A stretch of DNA of 64,000 nucleotides. Origin: Candidatus Woesearchaeota archaeon (lineage in GTDB: Archaea > Nanobdellota > Nanobdellia > SCGC-AAA011-G17 > JACPIM01). The position numbers were made by a program, and so were the translations under genes. The notes beneath the pieces are model-generated. The model did not search any database, was not told the origin of the DNA, and saw nothing but the letters and a program-made list of their open reading frames with translations. The stretch's first letter is position 1. Each line of letters opens with the position of its first letter. This document shows, piece after piece, positions 8,460 through 54,351 of the stretch. The stretch lies in the NCBI GenBank assembly GCA_043817645.1, contig JBDRGP010000024.1, positions 412-64,411 of the forward strand, given 5' to 3'.

Positions 8460-8479
8460 TAGTTTGGTCTTTTATTAAA

Positions 8480-8716: not shown

Positions 8717-8955
8717 TTCCCCTTTATTCCTAGAATTTCTTTTATTTTTTCTCTGTCAAAACCTGTGTATACTTTATCATCTACTTTTAGTACAGGGGTG
8801 TTGGTCTGACCTGATATTTCAAAAAGCTCTTTTTGTCTTTCTAGGTTTCTTGATACTTCTACGAATTCGCATTCTACTCTGTGGTACATTAGTAGGTTTT
8901 TAACCATATCAGAATAAGGATCCCCTGTTTTTGTGTATAATTTTATTTTTGGCAT
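8713..8955 (-). CDS. glutaredoxin/thioredoxin-fold protein with active-site Cys pair replaced (GDPYSD instead of CPYC)
   Basis: KIKLYTKTGDPYSDMVKNLL…TPVLKVDDKVYTGFD matches the glutaredoxin layout but lacks both redox cysteines. Confidence 0.45.
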   Translation of the reverse strand: MPKIKLYTKTGDPYSDMVKNLLMYHRVECEFVEVSRNLERQKELFEISGQTNTPVLKVDDKVYTGFDREKIKEILGIKGN

Positions 8956-8956
8956 T

Positions 8957-38493: not shown

Positions 38494-39044
38494 TATAGAT
38501 CAAGCCTCATATCACAAAATTGACTTAATTCGTTTATTAAATCCTCGTTACCCTTTTTCTGTAGCGAAACGATTATACCGCGAACCTTCCAAGCTCTCAT
38601 CTTTCCTGAAAGGAAATGGATAAATCTTGCTACTGTTCTTGTGTCATTATACATTAAGAGCGTGGTTAAGCTATCAAAGAAGAGAAATTTTTCTTTTCCT
38701 GGTAAGGCTGTGACTGCTTGATCCATTGCTAAGGAGATATCGCTTAGATTTTCAGGGGTTCCTATAAAGAGGCAGTCTTTTGTTTTCTTAGTTTTTCCTC
38801 CTGATGTTTCTGTTATTGCGTCTATAAAGATAATCAGCTTAACATCAATTTTTGCTTTTTTGAAAGAATCTTTTATTTGAATAAATGGTTTATTTAAGGT
38901 AACATAGGCTCCGGGAATTTTTATTTCCTGGGTTAAATACTTTATAAGTTTTAGGTTGATTTCTTCATATTTTTTAGCTGGAACCACTGCGATAACTACG
39001 GACTCTTTCATATCCTTTAATTGGTTGATACCCTCTTTTCCCAT
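38493..39044 (-). CDS. RecA/KaiC-superfamily-like protein lacking a P-loop (degenerate)
   Basis: Alternating beta/alpha pattern (VVIAVVP…LIIFID…FIGTPEN) resembles the two adjacent KaiC-like genes but has no Walker A. Confidence 0.35.
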   Translation of the reverse strand: MGKEGINQLKDMKESVVIAVVPAKKYEEINLKLIKYLTQEIKIPGAYVTLNKPFIQIKDSFKKAKIDVKLIIFIDAITETSGGKTKKTKDCLFIGTPENLSDISLAMDQAVTALPGKEKFLFFDSLTTLLMYNDTRTVARFIHFLSGKMRAWKVRGIIVSLQKKGNEDLINELSQFCDMRLDL

Positions 39045-39145
39045 GCTTTTTTAGGGGGTTATGTGATATTTAAAGGTTTCTTAGCTAAATTTGGCTGTTT
39101 TAGACTTTAGTAAGCTTTTTATATTAAAACTAAAATCTAAATATT

Positions 39146-39853
39146 ATGGACTTGGATAAAACAGGGATACCTGGTTTGGATGAAATTTTAAAAGGAGGTT
39201 TGCGGAGGAATTCTTCCATTCTTGTTAAGGGATCTCCTGGTTCTGGAAAAACTATTCTGGCTTTACAATTTATTTATGCAGGTGCGAAAAAAGGCGAGCC
39301 TGGTGTTTTTATAACTGCTGAAGAGGATTTGGATGATCTTAGAGCTCATGCAAAAACTTTAGGAATGGGCTTGGAGGACTATGAAAAGAAAAAGTTGATA
39401 TTTTTAGTGAAGCAACCGGTTACATTAAAAAAATTAATTTCAATTGCTACGCCTTTGGATTTAATTTTAAAAGGAAAAGTGAAAAGGGTGGTTATGGATT
39501 CTTTGACCATTTTTAGATACAGTACTGATGATGAGATGTCTTATAGGAAAGAGATATTAAATTTAATTGAGAATATGAAAAAAGTTTTGTTCATGGCAAC
39601 TGCAGAAGAGAAAAAAACCGGATTGAATAATCTTGGCGCAACAGCAGAGGATTATCTTTTTGATGGGGTAATCAGATTGATAAAAATAAGGAGGGAGAAT
39701 AATTTTGAAAGATGCATCTTTGTTGAGAAAGCAAGAGGGCAGGATCATATGATAGACATTTATCCTTTTACGATTACAAATAAGGGTTTAGTGGTACACC
39801 CTAAAGAAATTCCTTTTTCTTTGATGGAGTCAGAATATAAGGGGAGAAAATGA
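39146..39853 (+). CDS. KaiC-like (RecA superfamily) ATPase
   Basis: GIPGLDEIL…SILVKGSPGSGKT Walker A. Walker B VVMDSL. Confidence 0.7.
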   Translation: MDLDKTGIPGLDEILKGGLRRNSSILVKGSPGSGKTILALQFIYAGAKKGEPGVFITAEEDLDDLRAHAKTLGMGLEDYEKKKLIFLVKQPVTLKKLISIATPLDLILKGKVKRVVMDSLTIFRYSTDDEMSYRKEILNLIENMKKVLFMATAEEKKTGLNNLGATAEDYLFDGVIRLIKIRRENNFERCIFVEKARGQDHMIDIYPFTITNKGLVVHPKEIPFSLMESEYKGRK

Positions 39854-40545
39854 AGATAGTTAGGGTTTCTTCTGGAATTCCTGGGTTAGACAAGCTAGTA
39901 CAGTCTGGGTTCAAGAAGAACTCTATGAATTTGATTGCTGGAGAGCCTGGGGCTGGGAAAACCATTTTTGGTATTCAATTTTTAGTGGAGGGCTGTAGAA
40001 AGGGTGAGGCTGGTGTGTATATTACTTTTGAAGAGAAAAAACAGAAATTATATGAGAATATGGCTACTTTTGGATGGGATCTTGAGAAATATGAAAAACA
40101 GGGATTGTTTAGATTTTTGGAGTATACTCCTGAGCAGGTTAAAAAACTTTTAGTTGAGGGTGGTGGCGTGGTAGATGCTTTAGTTGAAAAAATTAAGGCT
40201 AAAAGGATTGTTATTGACTCTATAAGCTCTTTTTCCTTGTTGTATGAGGACGAGTTAACAAAAAAAGAAGCTGCCTTGTCTTTGTTTGATTTAATTGAGA
40301 AGTGGAATTGTACTGCGGTTTTGACTTCTCAATCGTTAAGTGCTGATCATGAGAGCATTATAGATGCTGCTTTGGAATTTGAGGTAGATAGCATCATAAT
40401 ATTGTATCATTCAAAAAAACAAGGCGAGAGAGTAAGAGCTATGGAAATTTTAAAAATGCGTGGGACTAAGATTCCCTCTAAGACATTTGGACTTAAATTT
40501 AGTGATGAAGGTATTTCTATTACTAGTGATACTGTGAAATTGTAA
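39850..40545 (+). CDS. KaiC-like (RecA superfamily) ATPase
   Basis: GIPGLDKLV…NLIAGEPGAGKT Walker A. Walker B IVIDSI. Confidence 0.7.
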   Translation: MKIVRVSSGIPGLDKLVQSGFKKNSMNLIAGEPGAGKTIFGIQFLVEGCRKGEAGVYITFEEKKQKLYENMATFGWDLEKYEKQGLFRFLEYTPEQVKKLLVEGGGVVDALVEKIKAKRIVIDSISSFSLLYEDELTKKEAALSLFDLIEKWNCTAVLTSQSLSADHESIIDAALEFEVDSIIILYHSKKQGERVRAMEILKMRGTKIPSKTFGLKFSDEGISITSDTVKL

Positions 40546-40592: not shown

Positions 40593-41075
40593 TTATTCTA
40601 TTCTTGCTGTTAGGTCACCAGTTACTGTATGACTTAGAGTTTGTCCTGTTAGAGTGTATGTCAAACTTGAGATACCTTTAAATCTAGTACCTTGTGCAGT
40701 AGTATCGTCTACACTTGGGCAGTTCCATGTGAATGTCGCTGCATTGCCTTCAGCAATGCTTGTGGGGTTACCTGCAGCAGCAATGCATAACGGTCCAGTA
40801 GCTGTATTTTCATTTACTGTGAATATAACAGAGTTTGCAGTCGCACCAACGCCGTTTCTTACGATAATTGTAAGATCATCACTGGTAGAGACTACGTTAT
40901 CAATTTTAAAGTCATCACATGCAAATCCTGGAGCTAATGTACAACTTTGTGGTAAAAATTTACCTGGACTCAATACACCAAAGTAAGCTAATGCTCCGAT
41001 AGCGATCAATACTACCAAGATAGCCCAGCCATAGGTCATCAAGAACTCCATAGCGGCTTGTCCTTTTTCTTTCAT
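40593..41075 (-). CDS. type IV pilin (archaeal class III signal peptide, Q+1/E+5)
   Basis: MKEKG|QAAMEFLMTYGWAILVVLIAIGALAYFGV, then CTLAPGFACDDFKID. Paralog of 50960 and 41646. Confidence 0.75.
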   Translation of the reverse strand: MKEKGQAAMEFLMTYGWAILVVLIAIGALAYFGVLSPGKFLPQSCTLAPGFACDDFKIDNVVSTSDDLTIIVRNGVGATANSVIFTVNENTATGPLCIAAAGNPTSIAEGNAATFTWNCPSVDDTTAQGTRFKGISSLTYTLTGQTLSHTVTGDLTARIE

Positions 41076-41325
41076 TTAATCACCTCTCCTTTAGTTATTA
41101 TGAATATATCTTGTTTTTAATGGGCGATTAGTAGTATTTAAAGATTGCTAATTTGAAGTGGTTATGTAAGGTATGAGGAATATGCTTATTTGGGCTAATG
41201 GAGGATAATCACGTATTGGAATAGTGAAAAGCAGTATATTTAGAGTGTTGGAGGGATTTATTAGGTAGGTTTTTGAATTTTTGTTTTGGTAATCTTTTTA
41301 AACAAGGAGGTATTAGATAATTTGA

Positions 41326-41642
41326 TGAAAAAGTTTAGAAATAAAAAGTCTAAAGTTAGTTTTATTAAGTTTAGGATAATATTTATTGTAGTCTTATTGG
41401 TGTGGATAGTTGGTTTGGATGCTTTGATTTTGGATACTCTTAGTGAAAGGGAAGAGATGATAAATTATAACCCAAAGTTTCAAAATTCTATTACTGGAAG
41501 TTTTGGAATGAATGTTGCTTCACCGACACGTGAACAAGCCCTTCCTCATTTAATTATATTTGATTTGATTATAGCGGTGTCTTTTCTTATGAGTTATATC
41601 TCATGGGAGTATAGAAAAAAGAAGGTAATAAAAAAGAGGTAA
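41326..41642 (+). CDS. small pilin-associated membrane protein (paralog of 51682..52005)
   Basis: Shared motifs NYNPKFQNSITGSFG / HLIIFDLIIAVSFLMSYISWE versus NNNPAFYNIITGHVTGY / PLFILDTIIILLFSMSYYNWE. Immediately upstream of a pilin gene. Confidence 0.4.
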
Positions 41643-41645
41643 TAT

Positions 41646-42320
41646 ATGAAAAAGGGCCAGGCGGCAACGGAATTTTTAATGGTTTATGGTTGGGCACTTT
41701 TAGGTATTTTGGTTTCTGTTGGTGCCTTGATTTATTTTGGGGTTTCTCCTCAAAAATATTTGCCAAATACCTGCTATATGTCAAATAATCTTGAGTGTGT
41801 TGAGTATGGGGTTTATACACCTTCAGATGTGGAACTTACGGAGAGAGAAATCCTCATTATTGTTAAAAATGTTCTTGAAAGAGGGAATATGCAAAACGTA
41901 GTTATGCAACTTTATGGAACGGATGGCAGTGTGTGTAATATGGGTCCTGTTTCTGGGGATATAGCTAGTGGTGAATCAGTGCTTTTTTATTCGAGTATAG
42001 TTGATACTGATTGTAATTTTGATGTGGGTGAAAAAGTTGATTTAGGGATTGGTGTTAGTTTTGATTTAGAAGGAGGCACAAGGGAACATTCTGTAACTGG
42101 TAGACTAAGAGGGAAAGCAGTAGCTATGCCTGAAGGATCTGGAGGAATGGGTGGTGATGGTGGTGATGGTGATGATGGCGGTCCTGGAGATATTGTGATA
42201 ACAGAAGATATTTGTGATGATGGGATAGATAATGATGTTGATGGTGATACTGATTGTGCTGATAGTGATTGTGTTGAGGTTCCATCCTGTGTAGTGCCTC
42301 TGCCACCACCAAAGCTTTGA
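41646..42320 (+). CDS. type IV pilin with C-terminal Gly/Asp- and Cys-rich extension
   Basis: MKKG|QAATEFLMVYGWALLGILVSVGALIYFGV. C-terminus GGMGGDGGDGDDGGPGDIVITEDICDDGIDNDVDGDTDCADSDC is an Asp-rich Ca-binding-like Cys motif. Confidence 0.7.
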   Translation: MKKGQAATEFLMVYGWALLGILVSVGALIYFGVSPQKYLPNTCYMSNNLECVEYGVYTPSDVELTEREILIIVKNVLERGNMQNVVMQLYGTDGSVCNMGPVSGDIASGESVLFYSSIVDTDCNFDVGEKVDLGIGVSFDLEGGTREHSVTGRLRGKAVAMPEGSGGMGGDGGDGDDGGPGDIVITEDICDDGIDNDVDGDTDCADSDCVEVPSCVVPLPPPKL

Positions 42321-42400
42321 GGGTTTGGTTAAGTGAACTATATTTTTTTTAAATTTTATAAAACGTAAACTATATATAATCTCTTGAATTGTAAAAAGTT

Positions 42401-43483
42401 ATGAGGGGTGGTCAAATTAGTTTTGAGTATATTGCGATATTTGGTTTAGTTCTCCTTCTTACTGTTCCACTTTTTTATATTGGTCTTTCAAGGTCTAAAG
42501 AGAATATAAGACATGAGCAAGTGACTGATACTGTGGATTCGATTGTTAAAAATGCGGACGAGGTTTATTCTCTTGGGTTAGGGAGCAAGGATTTTGTTTG
42601 GGTAAACACTCCTACAGGAATTACTTCTGCTTATGTTGATGGGAAAACTTTTGTGATAACCCTGTCTATTTTTGGTGCTAATAGCGAGTATATTGCTATT
42701 TCTAAAGCAAACTTAACAGTGACACAGGATTTTTTAGACAAAATCATTCTAGCTGGAAGATATAAGGTTAAGGTAGAGACTTATTTAAATTCTAGTAGTG
42801 GCAATGCGATGGTTTTGCTTGGCGGATATTGTGGTGATGGTATTTGTAGTAGTTCTGAGAACTCTGATACTTGTTTAAGTGATTGTGAGGATTATTGTGG
42901 TGATGGTATTTGTAATTATCCTGGTACTCCCCCTAATGAAGAGGGATGTTTAGCTGATTATTGTTCTGATTGTATTGGAAGTCAAGCGGATTGTGATGAT
43001 GGTGATGTTTGTGAAGAAACTCCTGGGACAGGTCTTGGAACATGTGTTGCTGGAGCTCCTGTGTGTGGCGATGGTGAATGTCAAGGTGAACCGTATATAG
43101 AAAATTGCCAGAATTGTAAACTGGATTGCCAAGAGCCCCTTGGATGGTATTGTTGTTATGATGCTGGGATAGATAGTTGGTATAGTGCATCCCAATGTGG
43201 TATACCTCCTACAGTAACTAGTTGTCCTGATTGGTGCGTTTATATTGGAAACAGAGACGGTTCTGGTTATAACACCGGGGTTTGCGCTCTGAACATAAAC
43301 AAATGCGGCGGTTGGACCGGGGGGGCCCATGTGGAAATAGATGAAATGGATGTCGATGAAACTGGTGGTGGTGATGGTTGTGGAGACGAGCCTTTCCCTC
43401 CGGGTGATGGAGAGTGCGATGGAGATGAATATTGTTGGGCTGGAGAACCAGCTAATACCTGTTGCTGTATTATTCTTGGTTAA
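42401..43483 (+). CDS. prepilin-like protein with large Cys-rich C-terminal domain
   Basis: MRGG|QISFEYIAIFGLVLLLTVPLFYIG class III signal. Repeated YCGDGIC…C..DCEDYCGDGICN modules and many more Cys. Confidence 0.6.
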   Translation: MRGGQISFEYIAIFGLVLLLTVPLFYIGLSRSKENIRHEQVTDTVDSIVKNADEVYSLGLGSKDFVWVNTPTGITSAYVDGKTFVITLSIFGANSEYIAISKANLTVTQDFLDKIILAGRYKVKVETYLNSSSGNAMVLLGGYCGDGICSSSENSDTCLSDCEDYCGDGICNYPGTPPNEEGCLADYCSDCIGSQADCDDGDVCEETPGTGLGTCVAGAPVCGDGECQGEPYIENCQNCKLDCQEPLGWYCCYDAGIDSWYSASQCGIPPTVTSCPDWCVYIGNRDGSGYNTGVCALNINKCGGWTGGAHVEIDEMDVDETGGGDGCGDEPFPPGDGECDGDEYCWAGEPANTCCCIILG

Positions 43484-43485
43484 AA

Positions 43486-43863
43486 ATGAAAAAAGCTCAG
43501 ATAAGTATAGAGTGGTTATTCGCGATTGGTACACTTTTTTTGGTTTTTTTATTAGTCCTTGGCTTTTCATTTGATAAAAAAATTGAGGTCATGAAAACAG
43601 AAAAATATATTGGGCTAAGAGGGGAGTGTTTAAAATTATCAGAGATAATTGTGTCAACTTTCTTGAGTGGGAATGGAACTGAAATTCAAACCCAGATATC
43701 CTACAATGCTTCTATTGATCCTAACAATCAGCTAATTACAATTGAAGACGTAGACTTGGTAACGTGTACAATTCCGATTAATAGGACTTCAAATGTGGAT
43801 TTGGAAGAAGGTTTGGTAATCTTGAGTAATGTTGGAGACTATGTTGATTTAGAAAATGGGTAA
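43486..43863 (+). CDS. minor prepilin-like protein
   Basis: MKKA|QISIEWLFAIGTLFLVFLLVLGF. Confidence 0.5.
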   Translation: MKKAQISIEWLFAIGTLFLVFLLVLGFSFDKKIEVMKTEKYIGLRGECLKLSEIIVSTFLSGNGTEIQTQISYNASIDPNNQLITIEDVDLVTCTIPINRTSNVDLEEGLVILSNVGDYVDLENG

Positions 43864-44347
43864 GGGGCAAATAGTATCCTTGGATTTAATTCTGTCTATT
43901 GTGGTTTTCATTCTTTTAATCGGAGGGATAATTGCTTTTTGGAATATTTATATTTTGAGATTTAATGCCAATATTAAGCAAGAAGAACTTGCTTTGAAGG
44001 CCACTAAAATAACTGATTTATTTGTGGAGAGTCAGGGTGTTCCTACTGGGTGGAATGAAACAAATGTTCAGGTAATTGGGTTAGTTGATAGGGACAGGAG
44101 GTTAAGTTCAAATAAACTGGCTTCGTTGTTGAATGTAACTTATGCTCAAATTAAAACTTCTTTGAATATTGATGCGAATGAGTTTTATTTTAGGGTGGTT
44201 GACTTGAATGGTGCCTTGGTTAAGGCTAAAGGAAACTTTGTTGAGGTAGGTAATTCCTCTTTAGATGTTGAACAGGTCATTGAGATGAGGAGGTTTGCTC
44301 TTTATGGTAACCAAAAGGTTGTCCTTGAGTTTTCGATTTGGGAATAA
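43856..44347 (+). CDS. minor prepilin-like protein
   Basis: MGKG|QIVSLDLILSIVVFILLIGGIIAFW. Confidence 0.5.
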   Translation: MGKGQIVSLDLILSIVVFILLIGGIIAFWNIYILRFNANIKQEELALKATKITDLFVESQGVPTGWNETNVQVIGLVDRDRRLSSNKLASLLNVTYAQIKTSLNIDANEFYFRVVDLNGALVKAKGNFVEVGNSSLDVEQVIEMRRFALYGNQKVVLEFSIWE

Positions 44348-44351
44348 AGGC

Positions 44352-44729
44352 ATGATTTTCTTATTGGATAGCGTTATTGCACTTTTTATAGTTTTTATAA
44401 TTCTTGCTATATCGATATTCTTTTTAAGCAGGTCGGAACAATCTCCTGTAAGTGAATTGCAAGCAAGCAGAATTGCTAATGATGTCTTTGCCATTTTGGA
44501 TTATAGGGGCCTTTTAGGAAATTTTGATGCGAATGAAATAACTTCTGAACTAAATGCTATACTGCCTGTAGGTTATGTAGTTGAGTATAAGATCGAATGT
44601 CCTAATAGAGTTTATGACTCGAGGGGAAGTTCGACTTTTTCTGAAGAGTCTGCGTTTTCGGGTGAGAGAGTTTTTGTCGATACTAAATTTAATAAGTGTA
44701 TTGCGAGGTATTGGGTATGGCTAAGTTAG
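44352..44729 (+). CDS. pilin-like / pilus-associated membrane protein
   Basis: MIFLLDSVIALFIVFIILAISIFFL N-terminal helix. Sits within the minor-pilin gene run. Confidence 0.35.
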   Translation: MIFLLDSVIALFIVFIILAISIFFLSRSEQSPVSELQASRIANDVFAILDYRGLLGNFDANEITSELNAILPVGYVVEYKIECPNRVYDSRGSSTFSEESAFSGERVFVDTKFNKCIARYWVWLS

Positions 44730-45532
44730 GGGTTTTCTACACAATAGGATTTTTTATTGTGATACTAGTTTTCTTTAGCTTCGTGGTTATAATAAATAGA
44801 AATTTTATTTCGACAAGTGAAAGACTGGAAGAGGATTTGGGATATGAGCAAATAAGAAATCTTGATTTGTCTATTCAAAAGGGTTTTAAAGATATTTTTA
44901 CAATGCTTTCAGGAATTTCTGTGAGTAAGGGAACTAATTCAGTTACTTTTACTGAAATTTTGCCTAACCCTTCTGATTCAAATTTTAAAAGTAATATCTC
45001 GCAGTATAAAACTTTTCTTGAGAGTAATTATCCTGTAATTTTTGAGGTTGAAGAAATAAATGGTAATTTGCCTTTGATTATTCAGCCATATGGCATTGAA
45101 TTAGGTCATCTGAGTTATGGGGGTGCGGAAATGAACTTAACTTGGAAACAAGTAAATTTTGATGGGTTTGTTGTTACAATACAGGCTGATGTGGTATTGA
45201 ATTCTGGTTCTTGTGATACTAGTGGTAGTTCTAGTAGTCCTTATTTGAATTTAAATGCTTATGGCTCTTCTGGAAGTTGTACAGTTACGGATAATTCGCA
45301 TGTTGAGATCTTTGATACGCAATTACCTCCGAATCTTCAAGTTACTTTGGATTTGGATGAGGCTTCGCAGGTGTTGACTGTAGTTGCTAGTGAGACAGTA
45401 ACAGCGGCAGTAAGCGTAGAAGGCTTAACTGATATGGCTGATGACACTATAGTTACTTTGCCTGAGGAGGTTTTGAGTTATAACTTTGGTGATCTTAATT
45501 TTATTAAAAACGGGACTATACGGCTTTTGTAG
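44717..45532 (+). CDS. pilus-associated membrane-anchored protein
   Basis: MAKLGVFYTIGFFIVILVFFSFVVII N-terminal anchor with a Ser/Thr-rich beta-rich ectodomain. Confidence 0.35.
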   Translation: MAKLGVFYTIGFFIVILVFFSFVVIINRNFISTSERLEEDLGYEQIRNLDLSIQKGFKDIFTMLSGISVSKGTNSVTFTEILPNPSDSNFKSNISQYKTFLESNYPVIFEVEEINGNLPLIIQPYGIELGHLSYGGAEMNLTWKQVNFDGFVVTIQADVVLNSGSCDTSGSSSSPYLNLNAYGSSGSCTVTDNSHVEIFDTQLPPNLQVTLDLDEASQVLTVVASETVTAAVSVEGLTDMADDTIVTLPEEVLSYNFGDLNFIKNGTIRLL

Positions 45533-45767
45533 TTATTCTTTAGTTAAAGAAGGATTTATATATCACTATAACTCATAAATGTGTAGATGATAAAGGTATT
45601 GAGATGCTTACATTGTAATCATGAGTGGGCTAGGAGACTAAATAAAAATCCTGTTCTGTGTCCTAGATGTAAATCACGAAATTGGAGTAAAAAACCACAG
45701 ATAAAATATAGACCAAAAAATTATACGGGAGGGTATAGAAGAAGTTAACAGAAAAGAGAGGTTTGAC

Positions 45768-47603
45768 TTGGGCGATATGGCTAAAATAAAAAAGGGGGTG
45801 GAAAAAGGCACTCCTATGGATACTGAATTAGCAGAGATTGATAAGAGATTAGCTAGGCTTAGTGGAAAAGAGGAACCCGAAGTTTCGAGTTTTGAGGAAA
45901 AGAAGAAAACTAAGACCTTTAAGAAAAAAATAGAAGATAAAAAAAACAAGGTAGTTGGAACAAGGACGAAGTTAAAGCCTAAAAAGGTTTTAAAGAAAGT
46001 TCGGTCTTTAGACTTTGAATTAGCTGATATTGATAGGAGATTAGCTGTGCTTGATGGAAGAGAGGAACCTGAAGTTTCGAGTTTTGAGGAAAAGAAGAAA
46101 ACTAAGACTTTTAAGAAAAAAATAGAAGATAAAAAAAGTAAGGTGATTGGGACGAAAGTGAAGTTAAAGCCTGAGCTATTGAAAGTTAAAGCCGGGCAAA
46201 AAGATTTGTTGAAAGAGCCTAAAAAGGTTTTAAAGAAAGTTAGGTCTTTACCTAAAGAAAAATTTACTTCTTTGGATAGGGAAAAGAAAGAGGATATTTC
46301 CTTTAAGGATGAGATTAGGACTAAAAAGGAAGTTTTAAAGAAAGATGTGGCTACTAGTCTAAAAAAGAAAAGGGAAGTTTCTATTCCAAAAAAGAAAAAA
46401 ATATCTAAGAAGAGTTTTTTAGGGTTTAAGAAAAAAAGTGATAAAGCTTCTACTCTTAAGTCTCTTTCTTTAAGTGAAAAAAAGAAAGATTTGTTGAAAA
46501 AGAAGATTCCAAAGAAAAAAACTTCTGTTGTGAGTTCTGGAATGCTCAAAAAGAAAATGGAATCTAAGTTGGGCAGAGATATTTCTAAACCTGTTGAGAT
46601 AGGAGAAGAAAAAGCTGAAGAGGAAAGTGGTAAATCAAAAACACTTCTAAAAAAAGTTAAGGATAAAAAATCAAAATTACGTTTTCCTTTGGAGAAGAAA
46701 AAAGAAGAGGGTCCTACAGAGAAAGTTTCTAAAAAAGAAGAACCTAAGGGAGTAGAGGGGAAGGAAGAAAAACTAGTAAAAAAAACTGAAGAAAACACCC
46801 AAGAGGAAAAAGATGAAAAGAAGATTGGTAAAAAACCTTTAAAAAAATCTTCTGATTTAAAGATTACTACCTTTTTTGATAAATTAGTTGATGATGTTGA
46901 AAAGAGAGGCGCTGTGGGACTATCAGAGATAGCTGAGACTTATAAAATAGATAAAAAAACAGCGCAAGAATGGGCTGAGATATTGAAGGATAATGATCTT
47001 GTTGATTTTAATATTCCTCCTTTTGGTGAGCCAGAACTTAGGAAGAAGCGTTTAAAGTTAGAAAAGGGTGAGAAGGGAGAAAAGGTAGAAGATAAAGAGA
47101 AGACAAAAAAGGAAAAACCTAAGAAGAAATTAATTAAAAAATTTCTTTTAGGAGGTAGCAAAAAATATGTTGTAATGGGGATATTGGGTTTAGTTGTGAT
47201 TATCTCCATTGCTAGTTTTTTTATATTTTCGGGGCGAAGTGGAGAAAGGACTTTTGCGGTTCCTTTTATTGAAGGAACTCAAGAAGAAGAACAAGTGAGA
47301 GAGATAATAGATAAAGAGGATGTTTTATTGGCATTTTCTGGAAATGGATCGTATGATTGTAGAAGCGAAGATGGAAGTACTCGATATCTTATTAAGAACG
47401 TGTTTATAAAAATAGAAGAGTTGGATGGTTCATCAAAGGTAGTGATAAAAAATGATAAGATATATACTTTTAATGTTAATACTGGGTTATGGGTTGAGTC
47501 TGAATTAAGAGAGGGAATTGCTGTTCCTGGGTCCGGAGTTTATCCTAAAACTGTATTAGAATGTCAAGGAGAGGAGATAGATGAGAGCGAATTTGATACC
47601 TAA
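45768..47603 (+). CDS. Lys-rich repeat protein with HTH-like segment, single TM and C-terminal extracytoplasmic domain (pilus-locus specific, function unknown)
   Basis: ~470 aa K/E-rich low-complexity region containing a ~190-200-bp internal tandem duplication (45820-46010 vs 46020-46205). Then AVGLSEIAETYKIDKKTAQEWAEIL, the TM segment YVVMGILGLVVIISIASFFIF, and a ~115-aa C-terminal domain. Confidence 0.5.
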   Translation: MGDMAKIKKGVEKGTPMDTELAEIDKRLARLSGKEEPEVSSFEEKKKTKTFKKKIEDKKNKVVGTRTKLKPKKVLKKVRSLDFELADIDRRLAVLDGREEPEVSSFEEKKKTKTFKKKIEDKKSKVIGTKVKLKPELLKVKAGQKDLLKEPKKVLKKVRSLPKEKFTSLDREKKEDISFKDEIRTKKEVLKKDVATSLKKKREVSIPKKKKISKKSFLGFKKKSDKASTLKSLSLSEKKKDLLKKKIPKKKTSVVSSGMLKKKMESKLGRDISKPVEIGEEKAEEESGKSKTLLKKVKDKKSKLRFPLEKKKEEGPTEKVSKKEEPKGVEGKEEKLVKKTEENTQEEKDEKKIGKKPLKKSSDLKITTFFDKLVDDVEKRGAVGLSEIAETYKIDKKTAQEWAEILKDNDLVDFNIPPFGEPELRKKRLKLEKGEKGEKVEDKEKTKKEKPKKKLIKKFLLGGSKKYVVMGILGLVVIISIASFFIFSGRSGERTFAVPFIEGTQEEEQVREIIDKEDVLLAFSGNGSYDCRSEDGSTRYLIKNVFIKIEELDGSSKVVIKNDKIYTFNVNTGLWVESELREGIAVPGSGVYPKTVLECQGEEIDESEFDT

Positions 47604-47609
47604 TTCAAA

Positions 47610-49067
47610 ATGGCAATAATAGATACTTATACTGTTACATCTGAAGGAGTGAACGTTGTAGTAAACATTGGAAAGAGTGAATCTGGATTGAATTATTCTA
47701 TTAAGATACCTGAGGTTGGTAAGCCTACATCTGTTCTTTTGTTGGAATTAAAGAAAAGGCTTATTACAGAGGTGACTATTGGCACTTCAGAGATTCTTGA
47801 TCCGAAAGTAATGATACAGATTAAGGAGAGGTTTACTGGCAGCTGTCATAAAATATTAGACAAGCTTATGCCGGGATTACTAACTGAAACTAAGGATTTT
47901 TTGACTGGAACATTAATGCATGATATGTTGGGTTTGGGTCAAATTGAATTTTTATTGGAGGATGTTTCTTTAGAGGAGATTGTAATTAATTCTTCAACTG
48001 AGCCTGTGAGAGTTTATCATAAGAAATATGGTTGGTTGGAAACGAATATAACGGTCGTTAGTGAAGCTCAGATATTAAACTATGCTAATATTATTGCTAG
48101 AAGGGTTGGTAGACAGATTACAACTCTAAGTCCTTTATTGGATGCACATCTTGTTACAGGAGATAGAAGTAATGCTGTTTTGTATCCTATTTCTCATAAG
48201 GGAAATACTATAACAATAAGAAAATTTGCACGTGATCCTTGGACTGTTACAGATCTTATTAAAAATAATACTTGTACAGCTAAAATATTTGCATTATTAT
48301 GGCTTGCGATACAGTATGAGCTGAATATCTTAATCAGTGGAGGTACTGGGAGCGGTAAAACTAGCTTTTTGAATGTAATTATGCCTTTTATACCTTCAAA
48401 CCATAGAATACTTTCTATAGAGGATACTAGGGAATTGCAGTTGCCTAAGTTTCTTTATTGGGCGCCATTGACTGTGAGGCCACCGAATCCTGAAGGAAAA
48501 GGAGAGGTGACTATGTTGGATCTTCTTATTAATTCCTTAAGGATGAGACCAGATAGGATTATCTTAGGAGAGATAAGAAAGCAGGAACAGGCGCAAGTGT
48601 TGTTTGAAGCAATGCATACAGGGCATAGTGTATATGCTACTGTGCATGCTGATTCAATAAGTGAAACGATTAGAAGGCTGGTTAATCCACCTATAAGTGT
48701 GCCTCAAAATCTTCTTACAGCGGTTAATCTAAATGTTGTGATGTTTAGGGATAGAAGAAAAGGAATAAGAAGGGTTTATCAAATTGGAGAATATGTTGAG
48801 AGTGAGGAAGGGAAGACTATAAGACCTAATATACTCTATAGATGGAGGCCTACGGATGATACGATTGTTCCACATGTTGCGAGTCTAAGGCTGTATGATG
48901 ATCTGAGTATGCATACTGGATTAAGCCAACAGGAGCTTCTTGATGATCTTGCTAAAAGAGAAAAGATTTTGAACTGGATGGTTAGAAAAAATATACGAAA
49001 AGTGGATGATGTTGGAGAGGTGATACATAGATATTATATTGATCCAGATAGTATTTTTAAAAAATGA
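47610..49067 (+). CDS. FlaI/ArlI–TadA-family type IV pilus assembly ATPase
   Basis: Walker A ILISGGTGSGKTSFLN, Asp box, Walker B DRIILGEIRKQE and His box HTGHSVYATVHA. Confidence 0.85.
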   Translation: MAIIDTYTVTSEGVNVVVNIGKSESGLNYSIKIPEVGKPTSVLLLELKKRLITEVTIGTSEILDPKVMIQIKERFTGSCHKILDKLMPGLLTETKDFLTGTLMHDMLGLGQIEFLLEDVSLEEIVINSSTEPVRVYHKKYGWLETNITVVSEAQILNYANIIARRVGRQITTLSPLLDAHLVTGDRSNAVLYPISHKGNTITIRKFARDPWTVTDLIKNNTCTAKIFALLWLAIQYELNILISGGTGSGKTSFLNVIMPFIPSNHRILSIEDTRELQLPKFLYWAPLTVRPPNPEGKGEVTMLDLLINSLRMRPDRIILGEIRKQEQAQVLFEAMHTGHSVYATVHADSISETIRRLVNPPISVPQNLLTAVNLNVVMFRDRRKGIRRVYQIGEYVESEEGKTIRPNILYRWRPTDDTIVPHVASLRLYDDLSMHTGLSQQELLDDLAKREKILNWMVRKNIRKVDDVGEVIHRYYIDPDSIFKK

Positions 49068-49957
49068 AAAATAAAGTTCCTTTATCTATAGTTCCGGTTA
49101 AATTATTAAGAAAAATTTCACAGATTTTTTCAGGTCTTGGGGGTAAACTGGAAAGAAGTTTTCCTTCTTTAAAATTAAATTTAGAGCAGGCTGGAATGGA
49201 TTTTACTCCTCAAGAATATATAGCGATGTGTATGACTTCTTCGCTTATCTCTTTTGTTTTTCTTAATATAATATTCAATATTAATTTATTTGTTTTAAAA
49301 ATCGAAAATCCTCCCTTGTTGTCTTTGCTTATTTCTGTTCCGTTAGTTCTTTTTATTCTTATTCAACAATTATTATATCCCAAACTAAGGGCTGGAAGAA
49401 AAATAAAGGATATTGAGAAGAATTTATTACCGGCGTTGCAGGATATGCTGGTTCAATTAACTTCTGGTGTACCTTTGTTTATGATTCTAGTTAATCTTTC
49501 GGAGCAAAGTTATGGTGAAGTTTCTAAAGAATTTGCTGGAACTGTTAAGAAGATAAGCGCCGGTATCGCTCAGGTTAGTGTTTTGGATGAATTGGCAAGT
49601 AAAAATCCTTCTCTTTATTTTAGAAGAGCTATTTGGCAGCTGGTTAACGGTATGAAAACGGGTTCTGATACTGCTATGGTTGTGAAAGAAATTATTTCTG
49701 CTTTATCTGAAGAGCAATTAATCCAAATACAGCGTTATGGTGGGCAGTTAAATCCTTTAGCTATGTTTTATATGTTGGTTACAGTAATTATGCCTTCTTT
49801 GGGGATGACTTTTTTGATTATTATTTCATCATTTATTTCGACATCAGAGTTTATTACTAAGCTTATTTTTTGGGGGTTGTACGGATTTGTTTTCTTTTTC
49901 CAGATTATGTTTTTAGGTATTATTAAAACAAAGAGGCCGACATTATTGGAGAGGTAA
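49064..49957 (+). CDS. TadC/FlaJ-like polytopic membrane platform protein (first of two)
   Basis: T2SSF-like domain layout (cytoplasmic domain flanked by TM helices). Start overlaps the ATPase gene stop. Confidence 0.6.
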   Translation: MKNKVPLSIVPVKLLRKISQIFSGLGGKLERSFPSLKLNLEQAGMDFTPQEYIAMCMTSSLISFVFLNIIFNINLFVLKIENPPLLSLLISVPLVLFILIQQLLYPKLRAGRKIKDIEKNLLPALQDMLVQLTSGVPLFMILVNLSEQSYGEVSKEFAGTVKKISAGIAQVSVLDELASKNPSLYFRRAIWQLVNGMKTGSDTAMVVKEIISALSEEQLIQIQRYGGQLNPLAMFYMLVTVIMPSLGMTFLIIISSFISTSEFITKLIFWGLYGFVFFFQIMFLGIIKTKRPTLLER

Positions 49958-50926
49958 ATGTATAGACTCATTACACGTTTAATTCCGGGCAGGATTCGAG
50001 AACATTTGTATAGTACTCTCGCTTATTCAAGAGTAAAGGTAAATAAGCAAAAGTTTTTGGGGTTTGTTTTAATTTCTAGTTTGGGATTGGCTTTAGGGCT
50101 CTCTTTGCTTATATCGAGATTATTTCATATAAGTTTTTTTGTTACTTTAGGTTTATCGATAATTGTTTTGGAGCTTGGTATTTATTTTTCTTTTTCTTTG
50201 AAGGCTGATGCTACTGCTAAATTTGTCGAGAGTATTTTGCCGGATGCTCTGCAATTAATGTCTTCTAATTTGAGGGCTGGTTTGACGACTGATAAGGCTT
50301 TATTGCTGTCGGCAAGACCGGAATTTGGGGTTTTAAGCGAGGAAATAAATGAAATTGGAAAAAAAATTGCTTTGGGCGAGGATATTGGGAAATCTATGAC
50401 TGAGATGACTGGAAAATTTAAGTCTGAGAGATTGAAAAAGACCTTTTTGTTGATTGTTTCTGGTTTAAGATCTGGTGGGCAGCTTACTGACCTTTTGGAT
50501 CAAACTGCTGACAATTTGCGTCAGGAAAGATTTTTGGATGAAAAAATAAGAACAAATGTGTTAATGTATGTTATTTTTATCTTTGCAGCGATTGGATTTG
50601 GAGCGCCAATACTCTTTGGGCTATCTTCTTTTTTAATAAGTGTTTTAGAAACGAATCTATCTATGGTTGAAATACCCCAAACAAGTGCTATTCCTATAAC
50701 TTTTTCACAGATTAATGTATCTTCCTCATTTATAATAACTTTTGCTATTATTAGTCTGTTAACAAGTTCTGTATTGGGTTCTTTGGTACTTGGTTTAATA
50801 AGTAGGGGTAAAGAAAAATTCGGGCTTAAATTTATACCTCTCTTGGTAGTTTTTACGTTGGGTATGTTTTTCTTATCTAGGTTTTTAATTGGTTCTTTAT
50901 TAGGAGGGTTATTTGGTTTGGAGTGA
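49958..50926 (+). CDS. TadC/FlaJ-like polytopic membrane platform protein (second of two)
   Basis: Second T2SSF-like unit (LQLMSSNLRAGLTTDKALL…). Split arrangement resembles EpdJ/EpdK and TadB/TadC. Confidence 0.6.
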   Translation: MYRLITRLIPGRIREHLYSTLAYSRVKVNKQKFLGFVLISSLGLALGLSLLISRLFHISFFVTLGLSIIVLELGIYFSFSLKADATAKFVESILPDALQLMSSNLRAGLTTDKALLLSARPEFGVLSEEINEIGKKIALGEDIGKSMTEMTGKFKSERLKKTFLLIVSGLRSGGQLTDLLDQTADNLRQERFLDEKIRTNVLMYVIFIFAAIGFGAPILFGLSSFLISVLETNLSMVEIPQTSAIPITFSQINVSSSFIITFAIISLLTSSVLGSLVLGLISRGKEKFGLKFIPLLVVFTLGMFFLSRFLIGSLLGGLFGLE

Positions 50927-50959
50927 TATTATTAACTTTTATAATGTTTTAGTTTAGTC

Positions 50960-51706
50960 TTATGGTTGAGATGGTGCTGGTGCTACTCCACAGCAACCTG
51001 GTGGGCCTCCACATTCTTCACATGATTTCATTATGCAGCCCTCTAATAATGAGAAGTCATTTTCGTCTATACAACCGTCAGGACTACAGTCAAAATTGGT
51101 AGCATAGCAAGAATCTCCTGGAGAGTAACATTTTCCAGAGCAACTACCAAATATCCCAAATTCTAATATATCAATCCATCCGTCACCATTCAAATCAAAA
51201 CAAGGGTTGCACTCTTCTCCTCCACTACCAGCAGTAGCACCCCCTGCTGAGGCTTCTACTTTTGCTGTTATTTTACCGCTTACTGAATGTGAGATTCCTC
51301 CTCCTTCTTCAACATACGTTATGGTGATATCTCCACTAAACTTACTGCTTGAAGTTGCTTCTGAGCAGCTCGTTAGAATTATGCCATCGCTTCCTCCTAA
51401 GATGCTTCCAGCGCTCCATTCGTCGTTACTGTCTGCTTCTGTACTGGATGTACAAGATGTTACTTGTACGTTTACGTTATTTAGAGTTTTTCCTAGACCA
51501 TTTCTTAAAACTAAATATAAACCCCCAGTATCTTCTATTTTGAAATCTTCGCAGCTAAAACCTGGAGCTAGGATGCAACTAGAGGATAAAAAAACTACTG
51601 AATTTAAAACTCCAAAGTATGCTAAAGAGCCAATAGTAACAAGAACAGCTAAAATCGCCCAGCCATAAGTCATTACGAATTCTAATGCTGCTTGGCCCTT
51701 TGCCAT
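50960..51706 (-). CDS. type IV pilin with C-terminal dockerin-like and Cys-rich extension
   Basis: MAKG|QAALEFVMTYGWAILAVLVTIGSLAYFGV…CILAPGFSCEDFKIED, paralogous to 40593. C-terminus has DLNGDGWIDILEFGIF and SPDGCIDENDFSLLEG (two dockerin-type Ca-binding repeats) plus CEECGGPPGCCG. Confidence 0.7.
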   Translation of the reverse strand: MAKGQAALEFVMTYGWAILAVLVTIGSLAYFGVLNSVVFLSSSCILAPGFSCEDFKIEDTGGLYLVLRNGLGKTLNNVNVQVTSCTSSTEADSNDEWSAGSILGGSDGIILTSCSEATSSSKFSGDITITYVEEGGGISHSVSGKITAKVEASAGGATAGSGGEECNPCFDLNGDGWIDILEFGIFGSCSGKCYSPGDSCYATNFDCSPDGCIDENDFSLLEGCIMKSCEECGGPPGCCGVAPAPSQP

Positions 51707-52005
51707 GATTTCGTCTCCCAATTATAATAACTCATACTAAATAGTAATATAATTATGGTATCAAGAATGAAGAGTGGTAAGTAGGCGTCGTTATAGGAAT
51801 TTGCAGCGATGACATATCCTGTTACATGTCCGGTTATGATGTTGTAAAATGCTGGGTTATTATTAAATGTGCTCAAAACAAGAAAATTTAAGGTTGATAT
51901 CCATACAAAAAGGAATAGAATAAAAGCTATTCTTGAGGTTTTCATGTGCATATAACTCTTTTTTTTGTATATAACTATTATTGTCCCTTGCAAGGTTTTA
52001 GACAA
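51682..52005 (-). CDS. small pilin-associated membrane protein (paralog of 41326..41642)
   Basis: Two TM helices and motifs shared with the 41326 product. Immediately upstream of the dockerin pilin. Confidence 0.4.
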   Translation of the reverse strand: MSKTLQGTIIVIYKKKSYMHMKTSRIAFILFLFVWISTLNFLVLSTFNNNPAFYNIITGHVTGYVIAANSYNDAYLPLFILDTIIILLFSMSYYNWETKSWQRAKQH

Positions 52006-52008
52006 CTA

Positions 52009-54351
52009 TCAAAACTCTAGTAAATCTGTACAGCAACAATATGCTCCGGTTTCATCAAAACTTTCAAGATTTTTTACATTTAGTCCTGCGAGGAATTTGG
52101 TTTGTCCATCTTTTAAGATTTCGGTAGTATCATTTACAATTCCGCTTGTGCTATTTAAAAGGATTTTTATTGAACCAGCTCCGTCTATGTCTATTAGTCT
52201 AATGTCAATATTGTCTACTGTAATTTCATCACTAGTGTCCATGAAAAATTTATTTGCAGACTGACTTTTAAATTCTGTTGCTGTTTCTGCGCTGGTTAGG
52301 GATAGTTCGTTGTCTAGTATGTTAATTGTTAAAGGAGAATTAACACTTGTTGTGTCTATATTTATTATACTGTCAAATGCATAATAATACCTTAAGCTGC
52401 CTGAAGTGGCTTCCATATATACGTTAGAGTTGTAAGTATCGTCAGAGGAACTTAAGCTGGTTTCTATGCTTGGACCTGTAGCATATAGCATTAGTCCTTC
52501 GTGGTAATTATAAGTTTCTCCTCCAAAGGACACTTTATGGTCTATTAGGGTAGGGATGCTAGAGTGGGATAATTCTGCACTAAAGAAGTCTGTGTCTGCC
52601 AGGTTGCTACCTAAGGGTATTTCATCTGTTGTAGTAGTATCAAGTTCTGTGATTTCTTCAGTTACATTGCTTTGTTCTATTGAAGTTCTTGTTATTTGTA
52701 GTAAACTGCTTGCAATATCTGTTGCACCAATAGTGTCTTTTACTTTTGCTTCATCACCTACAATTAAAAGCATATTTTGGAATTTTCCTTCTTTTATGAA
52801 CGGGGAGGGGTAATCTGAGAAATCTACACCTCCTGATGAGGAGTTTAGTACTTCTGGTTCATTATTTACTATTTTAATATAGGTGCCTTCTAGACTATGC
52901 TGATCGAAATTCTTTAGAAAATCTGTTGCCATTTTTGTGTCTTCTGCTGTTGTACCTGCTACTAAGAGGGCGGTGTTTCTGCCATTTTTGGCGTATTTTA
53001 TCATTGCTTCTCCTGGTTTTAGTGGCCAGTTACTGCATGTAGGAAATCCGTTGAATTCTTCTACTAAGGGATCAGCACATGGACCTCCTACAAAGATGAG
53101 ACTGTTATCTTCTTTAAATTTTACTTCGTTCGATAGTATCGGAGAGGGCATTTGTTCTCCAAGGACTGTTGTTCCTGCTTCTTGTACTTTTGTTACTTCT
53201 GAGGCTGTTTTTGTTATGTCTACTTTTGCTTTTACTTGATCAGCAGGAATTTCCAATTCAACTTTGTCTACTGCATTATTTGTTTTTGGGTCTTTGATTA
53301 CTATGCCATACAAAGAACGGTGATCTTCGTCTTTTGTTCCGATGTTAGTTGAAACCCAAACTAAATCTGCGTCTTCTGCTGTTCCTGATGAAGCGCCGAA
53401 ACCTGTGATATCTGCATCTGCTGTATGTTTTAGGTTTATAGTGATATCATCAGCACCTTCTGTTGCAGCAGCTCCTTCAAAAGCTAATATGTCCAAAACA
53501 AGGTTTAGGTTATTTGCTGTGCCAAAATCTCCTCTTAGATCTATTTGAATGTCTGTACCTTGGGTGTTTTCGTAGTCAATATCTGCTATGTTGATATCAT
53601 CATTTGCCGTATCCATTGCTAAATAGCCTGCTAAAGTTTTTACGTTACTTACACCCTCATAGTAAATTGCCGCATCGGAGTTAGTGTTGTTGTAGATTAT
53701 CCAAATATTATCTGTTTCTGCACCATCTGCACTGCCTGCTGCTACGTCGTAGTCTGCTGTATCTAATTTTAAGCCGGTTGTGTCGTCAACAGAATGTATT
53801 AAAATAGCGTCTTTGTTGCTCCAAGAAGAGTTAAAAGAAGATAGGTCTACTGTTGTTTTTTGTATATTGTATGTTCCATAATCTGATACAGTTAGCTCTA
53901 TGAATTTTATACAAATAATATTATCTGGAAAACAAAATGATCCTCCTGTGCCTTTAGCTTTAACACCGATGGCGTCTATATCTGTAGCAATGAATCTATT
54001 TTTAATTCCTAATAGTGGGCCTGTGTGGGAGGTTTCGTCATTGGTGTCCAGTAGATTTGTAGCTGCTTCTGTTTTAATATTTTTTATTATCCATTCCCAT
54101 TCAACGTCTTCTTCATCTTCTCCTATGAATGGGTCTGTGTCTTTGTAAGTTGTTACTGCTTCTGAGCCTATGATTAAGACTGCCTGTCCTGCAAGCGTAC
54201 AATCGTTTCCTCCTTCGATTAGAGAGTCTGAACAAGTATCTGTGCATATCCCTGAAGTGTAACCTGAATCAAGGCAGACTGTGTTGCAATCCTGAGAAAG
54301 TACTAATGGGATTATAAGGATTATTGCTAAAATAAAAAGTACATGCTTCAT
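52009..54351 (-). CDS. large secreted protein with Cys-rich N-terminal module and Ser/Thr/Asp-rich beta domains (candidate adhesin or pilus-associated surface protein)
   Basis: Signal peptide MKHVLFILAIILIIPLVLS followed by QDCNTVCLDSGYTSGICTDTCSDS. 780 aa. Co-directional with and immediately upstream of the small membrane protein and dockerin pilin. Confidence 0.55.
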   Translation of the reverse strand: MKHVLFILAIILIIPLVLSQDCNTVCLDSGYTSGICTDTCSDSLIEGGNDCTLAGQAVLIIGSEAVTTYKDTDPFIGEDEEDVEWEWIIKNIKTEAATNLLDTNDETSHTGPLLGIKNRFIATDIDAIGVKAKGTGGSFCFPDNIICIKFIELTVSDYGTYNIQKTTVDLSSFNSSWSNKDAILIHSVDDTTGLKLDTADYDVAAGSADGAETDNIWIIYNNTNSDAAIYYEGVSNVKTLAGYLAMDTANDDINIADIDYENTQGTDIQIDLRGDFGTANNLNLVLDILAFEGAAATEGADDITINLKHTADADITGFGASSGTAEDADLVWVSTNIGTKDEDHRSLYGIVIKDPKTNNAVDKVELEIPADQVKAKVDITKTASEVTKVQEAGTTVLGEQMPSPILSNEVKFKEDNSLIFVGGPCADPLVEEFNGFPTCSNWPLKPGEAMIKYAKNGRNTALLVAGTTAEDTKMATDFLKNFDQHSLEGTYIKIVNNEPEVLNSSSGGVDFSDYPSPFIKEGKFQNMLLIVGDEAKVKDTIGATDIASSLLQITRTSIEQSNVTEEITELDTTTTDEIPLGSNLADTDFFSAELSHSSIPTLIDHKVSFGGETYNYHEGLMLYATGPSIETSLSSSDDTYNSNVYMEATSGSLRYYYAFDSIINIDTTSVNSPLTINILDNELSLTSAETATEFKSQSANKFFMDTSDEITVDNIDIRLIDIDGAGSIKILLNSTSGIVNDTTEILKDGQTKFLAGLNVKNLESFDETGAYCCCTDLLEF

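Follow-up and report, generated by a model that had tools for sequence, protein, structure and literature searches.

The window analysed here, a stretch of 64,000 nucleotides (nt) of a Candidatus Woesearchaeota archaeon (positions 412 to 64,411 of contig JBDRGP010000024.1, assembly GCA_043817645.1), contains between positions 40593 and 54351 what is, judging from its gene content, an Epd-type ("system 1") archaeal type IV pilus locus endowed with a modular pilin repertoire. The locus type itself is ordinary and conserved, and the novelty lies in the archaeal modular pilins that it encodes, one of which bears a cysteine-stapled module of the dockerin superfamily that standard models miss. Taken as a whole, the explanation that we favour, with moderate confidence, combines an Epd-type locus, modular pilins, and C-terminal tails that would serve as adhesive or docking heads.

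The assembly genes carry the first part of this identification. A PilB/FlaI-family assembly ATPase (47610-49067, plus strand) matches the Pfam model T2SSE (3.7e-37), and two separate TadB/TadC-like platform proteins encoded on the same strand (49064-49957 and 49958-50926) possess a single T2SSF domain each (1.6e-11 and 8.2e-19, respectively), so that these profile searches bear out the FlaI-like ATPase and split TadC-like platform proposed in a preliminary description of this DNA that had been made without database searches. The label FlaI-like is apt because FlaI is the best NCBIfam model for the ATPase (278 bits) yet the score stays well under the equivalog cut-off of 550; the TadA model also matches (1.7e-53). 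Eight proteins of the locus start with a class-III-signal-type sequence, and five of these N-termini fit the Epd-type signal (KG↓QAAMEF, KG↓QAATEF, KG↓QAALEF, GG↓QISFEY, and KA↓QISIEW, the arrow marking the predicted cleavage site). The short Pfam model Class_IIIsignal, which had been suggested as a check of these N-termini, gave nothing significant on the window proteins (best E 0.23). In Methanococcus, the Epd hallmarks are EppA substrates with Gln+1 and Glu+5 together with EpdL plus EpdJ/EpdK (PMC4371748), and the archaeal "system 1" has been reported in methanogens, Thermococcales, and DPANN (bioRxiv 10.64898/2026.04.22.720090). The KG↓Q processing motif with Glu+5 and the single ATPase with two separate platform genes are such published hallmarks, and the Epd/Tad-like assignment of the preliminary description therefore holds. 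The gene content of the region, where the open reading frames (ORFs) found in an ORF check of the window exactly match those first listed, is arranged as follows. The minus-strand gene of a plain pilin (40593-41075) comes first, then a plus-strand run from small membrane protein A to platform protein 2, and finally an end block on the minus strand comprising an S-layer-like protein (52009-54351), small membrane protein B, and a tailed pilin (50960-51706). An unrelated metagenome contig (L002) has the same gene order, with a large prepilin, four small prepilin-like genes, a Lys-rich protein, the ATPase, and two platform genes, as well as KaiC-like and DUF7504 neighbours, around an untailed pilin that is 60% identical to the core of pilin 3 described below.

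Three paralogous pilins are at the centre of the repertoire. Pilin 1 (40593-41075, minus strand; 160 amino acids (aa); N-terminus MKEKG↓QAAMEF) is a plain major-type pilin without tail, located in the same divergent position as the sole, also untailed, pilin of L002. Pilin 2 (41646-42320, plus strand; 224 aa) consists of a pilin core followed by a Gly/Asp-rich linker of ~30 aa and one acidic double-disulfide repeat. Pilin 3 (50960-51706, minus strand; 248 aa) has a core (residues 1 to ~150) that an Ala/Gly/Ser linker connects to a Cys-stapled dockerin-like module (residues ~166-238, nt 50993-51211); it starts at the ATG of MAKGQ, the mechanical ORF extending to 51721, and is 100% identical to the NCBI protein ABIB47_03250. 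The pairwise identity among the three proteins is 30-44% in an alignment that spans their first ~150 residues, where Gln+1, Ala+2, Ala+3, Glu+5, Phe+6, a Tyr-Gly-Trp motif, and a Cys-x7-Cys pair are invariant, in agreement with the earlier proposal of three paralogous pilins sharing a Q-A-A-x-E-F mature N-terminus. The conserved C..PGF.C loop also attributed to them stands for the cysteine spacing, Cys-x7-Cys being found in all three, but PGF occurs in only two, as the 41646 pilin (pilin 2) reads CYMSNNLEC. We retrieved 62 pilin homologues at E<=1e-3, mostly of 140-160 aa; the few named ones come from Woesearchaeota or Nanoarchaeia, and three of them are called UPF0333 by JGI. Pilin 2 is divergent and has just two further homologues, neither of which is tailed, and the pilin of L002 is closer to the core of pilin 3 (60% identity) than to pilin 1 (47%). 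An AlphaFold2 model of full-length pilin 3 predicts a helix (residues 5-30) followed by a beta-sandwich, with a predicted local distance difference test score (pLDDT) of 83-95 per 10-residue block over most of the core. A fold search with this model returned generic Ig-like sandwiches and archaellin at E ~1e-2 and was uninformative on the pilin subtype. In both pilins 2 and 3, the core aligns with pilins of ~150 aa and is followed by a linker rich in Gly, Ala, Ser, and Asp and then by an extra module, which is the architecture of a modular pilin.

Sequence, profile, and predicted-fold evidence agree in placing the tail of pilin 3 in the dockerin superfamily, as a divergent member stapled by cysteines. 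This tail (residues 164-248) contains 12 cysteines and two canonical 12-residue EF-hand/dockerin loops, DLNGDGWIDILE and DCSPDGCIDEND, located 35 residues apart; in a six-frame translation of the window, the loop pattern matches nowhere else. Asp or Asn occupies loop positions 1, 3, 5, 9, and 12 in both of the tandem loop-helix repeats, so that these loops conform fully to the canonical pattern, more closely than do the loops of the tail's nearest relatives. A word-indexed homology search with the tail alone gave no matches, self included, and local phmmer showed the query to be sound. An exhaustive phmmer search against 1.84 billion representative proteins (E<=1e-3) yielded 117 matches, 116 of them non-self. 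The two best non-self matches (2.8e-27 and 7.5e-23, summed over repeats) contain eight and six Pfam Dockerin_1 domains (5.8e-70 and 2.3e-55, respectively). The single-copy modules among the matches (n = 18) are 37-52% identical to the pilin 3 tail and align with it essentially without gaps, showing ten invariant cysteines and Asp/Asn at the loop positions; the pilin 3 tail keeps all ten of these cysteines and adds two of its own. None of nine single-copy relatives scanned with Pfam, either as full-length proteins or as isolated modules, had a significant match to any family. Profile-profile comparison of this Cys-rich tail family with true dockerin modules (hhalign) gave a probability of 93.4% (E 2.5e-7) over 72 columns covering both repeats. 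When the tail-family profile was searched against all PDB sequences, the best match was the dockerin 2y3n_B (E 5.4e-4), ahead of calmodulins (E 0.008-0.045); a control profile built from true dockerin modules matched dozens of solved dockerins.

The predicted fold points in the same direction. We set aside the full-length AlphaFold2 run for this purpose: built on the alignment of pilin homologues, it left the tail unstructured (pLDDT <50) because no homologue in that alignment covered it. Modelled with its own family alignment, the tail reached a pLDDT of 79.4 and a predicted template modelling score (pTM) of 0.70, with helices at 17-26, 36-40, and 52-61, in dockerin positions. The best structural matches of this model by two methods were nearly all dockerins, which supports a predicted dockerin fold, with search statistics that are modest in absolute terms, as expected for a domain of 60 residues. 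The CxxC/CC cluster noticed earlier in the 50960 pilin (pilin 3) is indeed present, but it is not a separate element, since its cysteines belong to the conserved dockerin-like module. More generally, the relatives define a Cys-rich dockerin-like family of ~75-residue modules with ten invariant cysteines arranged as C-x2-C ... GC-x3-C ... C ... C ... GC-x4-C-x2-C-x2-C. Its members (alignment A3; P0066, P0070, P0072, P0074, P0078, P0079, P0085, and others) occur mostly in metagenome proteins that also contain Cys-rich "CxDGxFCNGxExC" repeats; one relative comes from Phycisphaerae and the others are metagenome proteins. This family forms a cysteine-stapled branch of the dockerin superfamily that has remained unannotated and escapes the current Pfam models.

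The tail of pilin 2 is of a different kind. The Asp/Gly-rich motif CDDGIDNDVDGDTDCADSDC reported for this protein corresponds to residues 186-215 (nt 42201-42290) and turns out to be a known type of repeat: it matches the NCBIfam family NF033662, an acidic double-disulfide repeat, with E 4.1e-8 over profile positions 3-32 of 32. The score, 32.8 bits, lies under the whole-protein cut-off of 41 because only a single copy is present. A pilin on another contig (L003, 290-865) has an acidic insertion within its core (..DTNLDGDTADATDCAD..) that resembles DGDTDCADSDC in the tail of pilin 2.

A third protein is modular as well. The large prepilin that follows pilin 2 (42401-43483, plus strand; 360 aa; N-terminus MRGG↓QISFEY) has a conserved N-terminal region of ~85 residues and a Cys-rich C-terminal part, ending in ...TCCCIILG; the last 220 residues of the protein include 30 cysteines. 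The repeated CGDGIC modules recognised previously correspond to three CGDG[IE]C units, which lie at residues 144, 166, and 222 (nt 42830, 42896, and 43064). Its N-terminal 85 aa are 47% identical (E 3e-24) to those of the 506-aa product of the first gene of the L002 operon, whereas the C-terminal parts of the two proteins are entirely different, that of the L002 protein showing a weak, sub-threshold match to a bacterial Ig domain (Big_7, E 0.0033). By its sequence, the 360-aa protein is a third modular prepilin, composed of a conserved carrier and a variable head. A search of PDB sequences with it for a known fold returned nothing useful.

Extra C-terminal modules are carried by about ten of the 62 pilin homologues. 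They include lectin-like Laminin_G_3 domains (6e-30 and 1e-28), a Gp38-like glycine-rich adhesin (2e-9), and short Cys-rich tails, in addition to CBM_4_9-like domains with weak matches (3e-5 to 3e-3) that remain under the cut-off. On one DPANN contig (L001), three pilins with CBM-like tails are encoded in tandem and followed by an S-layer-like gene homologous to that of the window (E 5e-26). No EF-type loops were found in the other pilins (0 of 61 non-self homologues). A 2016 archaeal census does not mention fused pilins. We take the entry IPR002105 to designate the dockerin type I repeat. In bacteria, Raynaud et al. (2021) described more than 1,200 modular pilins in 264 architectures, and their dataset contains two proteins with the pilin signature IPR012902 followed by two IPR002105 entries (PMC8179133). 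As far as can be read from these sequences, the modular-pilin design established in bacteria is also found in an archaeal pilin family.

Since both fusions are singletons among known proteins and come from a metagenome-assembled genome, the extensions might be artefacts, that is, the product of an assembly chimera, of frameshifted read-through, or of decaying pseudogene tails. We attach a negligible probability to this explanation. The ORFs are uninterrupted, and the tail of pilin 3 comes from a conserved family whose invariant cysteines it has retained, ten out of ten. A JGI contig that was assembled separately (L006) shows 100% identity to the window over 2872 bp spanning the small membrane protein gene and tailed pilin 3, and the third-position GC content of both tails (0.15-0.26) is host-like; together, the independent identical contig and the host-like composition argue against a chimeric assembly or a recent horizontal transfer of the tails.

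The mechanism that we favour would proceed as follows. A prepilin peptidase encoded elsewhere in the genome would cut the prepilins after Lys-Gly, leaving Gln+1 and Glu+5, and the ATPase and platform proteins would then polymerise pilin 1 as the bulk subunit through its N-terminal helix. Because the helices of the three pilins are near-identical, the tailed paralogues plausibly co-polymerise with pilin 1 or replace it; pilins 2 and 3 would thus join the same filament through the shared helix or make alternative filaments. Their modules, carried by flexible linkers of 15-30 residues, would sit on the outside of the fibre, at its surface or tip, where, loaded with Ca2+ and locked by disulfides, they would serve as heads that adhere to, or dock with, a ligand, whether a protein or a surface. 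N-terminal processing, the display of modules on fibres, and a role in an episymbiotic lifestyle are all elements that we infer from the genes.

Several results weigh against this account. Expression, N-terminal cleavage, the entry of tailed subunits into filaments, and Ca2+ binding by the loops are predictions. The whole window contains no match to an A24 prepilin peptidase and no GxGDxK motif in a plausible gene. The Pfam model Dockerin_1, proposed earlier as the test of a dockerin-like tail on the 50960 pilin, scores 12.6 bits on the full protein and 16.0 on the tail alone, under its cut-off of 22.9, and EF-hand models reach about the same score, also under threshold; the dockerin-like nature of the tail is upheld at the family level instead, by the profile-profile comparison, the predicted fold, and the PDB profile search. 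None of the 116 non-self relatives of the tail possesses a class III N-terminus, and the pilin 3 fusion therefore lacks comparative support beyond one population. Finally, Pfam detects no cohesin domain among the ORFs of the window, and the S-layer-like protein, when searched against PDB sequences, matched only an S-layer protein at E 0.096 and nothing cohesin-like, so that the idea of pilins docking cohesin-like partners, put forward in the preliminary description, is not supported so far. A dockerin fold alone does not imply a cohesin partner, since archaea commonly possess non-cellulosomal dockerin-like modules that lack an obvious scaffoldin, as discussed in PMC9012536.

The lack of a cohesin in the window would also suit a reading in which the tails are structural decorations, namely small acidic knots stabilised by Ca2+ and disulfides. 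Such knots would coat the fibre, cross-link it, or attach it to the S-layer, conferring stability or charge, and would have no cohesin-type partner. Among the closest relatives of the pilin 3 tail, the Ca loops are degenerate (loop position 9 is often Gly or Ser) but the cysteines never vary, which suggests that it is the scaffold, and not a binding face, that is conserved. The two tails are strongly acidic (15 and 17 Asp+Glu vs 2 and 1 Lys+Arg), and an S-layer-like gene lies beside tailed pilin genes in two genomes. Against a purely structural role, other pilins of the same family carry recognisable binding modules (lectin-like Laminin_G_3, CBM-like, and Gp38-like adhesin) at the same position, which argues that this C-terminal slot generally accommodates binding functions. 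We consider the structural role possible but rather unlikely, and retain adhesive or docking heads as the preferred function of the tails.

The two tailed pilins of the window have neighbours of their own. Small membrane protein A (41286-41642, plus strand; 118 aa) is hydrophobic at both ends, which we read as two membrane helices, and its gene ends 4 nt before pilin 2. Small membrane protein B (51682-52005, minus strand; 107 aa as a mechanical ORF, 89 aa from MHMKTSR) overlaps the start of pilin 3 by 25 nt at its 3' end. The two proteins are paralogues (38% identity, E 2e-15) without any Pfam family. Using their alignment as a query against genome and metagenome collections, we recovered four loci (L003, L004, L005, and L006), the last of which represents the same population as the window. 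In the other three, the homologous gene (L003 78-329, L004 264-524, and L005 26-271) is located directly upstream of pilins extended by ~20, at least 390, and ~250 residues, respectively, the pilins of L004 and L005 measuring at least 543 and 406 aa. In all five distinct instances found, the gene for the small membrane protein adjoins, and often overlaps, that of an extended pilin. It is absent beside the untailed pilin 1 and the untailed L002 pilin, and also beside the three tailed pilins of L001, which means that such a partner is not universal among tailed pilins. From this gene neighbourhood, the small membrane protein is probably a dedicated accessory factor for tailed subunits.

The presence of a small membrane-protein partner next to both tailed pilin genes, the plain pilin having none, could also be taken to indicate that the tailed proteins are not filament subunits, their class III signal and helix serving as a membrane anchor or short stalk, as proposed for the Sulfolobus bindosome sugar-binding proteins. 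Some surface proteins that are not part of pili are known to bear class III signals, such as the prepilin-like bindosome subunits of archaea (PMC4371748), and the ATPase of the locus also matches the bindosome BasE model (4e-43), far under its cut-off. This reading seems improbable to us given that both tailed proteins keep a complete globular pilin core, 30-60% identical to untailed pilins, with both Cys pairs and the invariant helix residues, and that the core of pilin 3 is nearer to the sole L002 pilin than pilin 1 itself is.

The third member of the end block is a secreted S-layer-like protein (52009-54351, minus strand; 780 aa, ending in ...CCCTDLLEF) that matches S_layer_C (3e-14) and is encoded directly upstream of small membrane protein B and pilin 3. 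S-layer-like genes thus adjoin tailed pilin genes in two DPANN genomes. The two homologues have their halves in swapped order: positions 57-494 of the window protein correspond to 285-667 of the L001 protein (gene 7070-9073), and 504-759 to 34-271. A more speculative extension of our preferred mechanism makes the pilus a mobile scaffold for a cohesin-dockerin-type lock, in which the disulfide-stapled dockerin of pilin 3 would engage a cohesin-like domain located either on the surface of a host cell or on the archaeon's own S-layer-like protein from the same operon. The small membrane protein would be an accessory factor dedicated to modular pilins, taking charge of their bulky tails as these proteins are inserted into the membrane or assembled. 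We regard this scenario as a long shot; if true, it would provide a defined protein-protein mechanism for episymbiont attachment and make the small membrane protein a previously unrecognised factor. Separately, we observed a tri-cysteine near the C-terminus of three secreted proteins, NTCCCIILG in the 360-aa prepilin (43457-43483), GAYCCCTDLLEF in the S-layer-like protein (52009-52044), and DTCCCVP in L002 (8262-8290), which could be a sorting, lipidation, or cross-linking signal.

Between the large prepilin and the ATPase lie four small ORFs (43486-45532, plus strand) in which a Gly(-1)-type site is followed by a hydrophobic N-terminus, the first having its site at MKKA↓QISIEW. They are minor prepilin 1 (43486-43863), with a 134-aa counterpart in L002; minor prepilin-like 2 (43856-44347; MGKG↓QIVSLD), with a weak DUF7287 match (E 0.0045) and a 177-aa L002 counterpart; minor prepilin-like 3 (44295-44729; ..GNKG↓MIFLLD), with a 142-aa L002 counterpart (KKG↓FVFTLD); and minor prepilin-like 4 (44717-45532; MAKLG↓VFYTIG), with a 271-aa L002 counterpart. 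This one-for-one synteny and the Gly(-1)/hydrophobic N-termini favour the four minor prepilins announced in the preliminary description, but no significant profile match accompanies them. A further ORF with an archaeal Pilin_N-type N-terminus (397-1011, plus strand; E 8e-5, slightly under the cut-off) occurs far from the main locus.

The gene preceding the ATPase encodes a Lys-rich membrane protein of 611 aa (45768-47603, plus strand), to which we assign no role but whose position in the locus is conserved, a Lys-rich protein of 431 aa being encoded at the same position before the ATPase in L002. The gene contains a 192-bp tandem repeat (45824-46172, 1.8 copies, 87% match), and a 374-aa ORF on the opposite strand (45674-46798) appears to be its low-complexity shadow. 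Flanking the pilus locus are two genes for KaiC-like ATPases and one of the DUF7504/KaiC-like type (38493-40545), with similar genes beside the related loci in L002 (11445-15882) and L003 (990-1544); by analogy with the KaiC-like FlaH of archaella, which they recall, they may belong to the pilus system. Elsewhere in the window, a 479-aa protein (9682-11121, minus strand) shows an unusual fusion of MtrA-like, thymidylate synthase, and pterin-binding DUF4346 domains and adjoins thymidylate kinase and dUTPase genes, and several genes are of mobile or defence type, including a nucleotidyltransferase/HEPN pair (1142-2225), a PIN-domain protein (4076-4480), and an IS66-family transposase (4557-5819).

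How DPANN archaea recognise and hold other cells is largely unexplained, and pili, although the usual suspects, have no defined adhesive parts assigned. The locus described here offers small, expressible candidates in the form of a dockerin-type module of 75 residues and an acidic repeat of 30, each borne by a pilin core and usable as bait for partners. In the archaeal pilin family to which they belong, lectin-like, CBM-like, Gp38-like, and dockerin-like modules are exchanged at one C-terminal slot.

Comparison with the Epd ("system 1") pili of Methanococcus maripaludis reveals the same predicted prepilin cleavage after (K/R)G leaving Gln+1 and Glu+5, one PilB-type ATPase with two separate PilC/TadBC-like platform genes, and many pilin genes in one operon-like cluster. 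In contrast with that system, the window and the cluster lack an EppA-type peptidase. The abundant-type pilins here (at least 160 aa) have a predicted beta-sandwich domain, whereas the main Epd pilin is described as lacking a globular domain (bioRxiv 10.64898/2026.04.22.720090). The woesearchaeotal locus also possesses extra conserved genes (the Lys-rich membrane protein, the flanking KaiC-like ATPases, and the small membrane proteins), and two of its pilins have C-terminal modules.

Regarding these modules, residues 186-215 of pilin 2 share with NF033662 four cysteines and an Asp-rich spacing, but pilin 2 has a single copy, placed at the end of a pilin, and the function of the family itself is not established. 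The module of pilin 3 resembles dockerins (cellulosomal type I/II and the non-cellulosomal dockerin-like modules of archaea and bacteria, Peer et al. 2009 as cited in PMC9012536) in its two tandem loop-helix repeats with D-x-[NS]-x-D-G-x-I-D-x-x-[DE] loops, its length of ~60-70 residues, its profile-level homology, and its predicted three-helix fold. It departs from them by its ten family-invariant cysteines (up to five disulfides), absent from classical dockerins, by its location on a pilin rather than on an enzyme or scaffoldin, and by a score under the Pfam gathering threshold.

The closest parallel in overall design is that of the bacterial modular pilins, such as those of Streptococcus sanguinis (PilB with a vWA module and PilC with a lectin module; PMC8179133), which likewise combine an N-terminal pilin module, a short linker, and a grafted functional module. 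The archaeal proteins differ in having a class III signal of the archaeal type (Gln+1, without the N-methyl-Phe motif) and are known from their genes alone. Their carriers are paralogues of the major-type pilin and not obvious minor pilins, and the modules of pilins 2 and 3 are short (30-75 aa) and Cys-rich. Lectin-like PF13385 modules, for their part, recur in both bacterial and DPANN pilins. This locus leaves the understanding of type IV pili unchanged; it carries a known design over into another domain of life and adds a new module to it.

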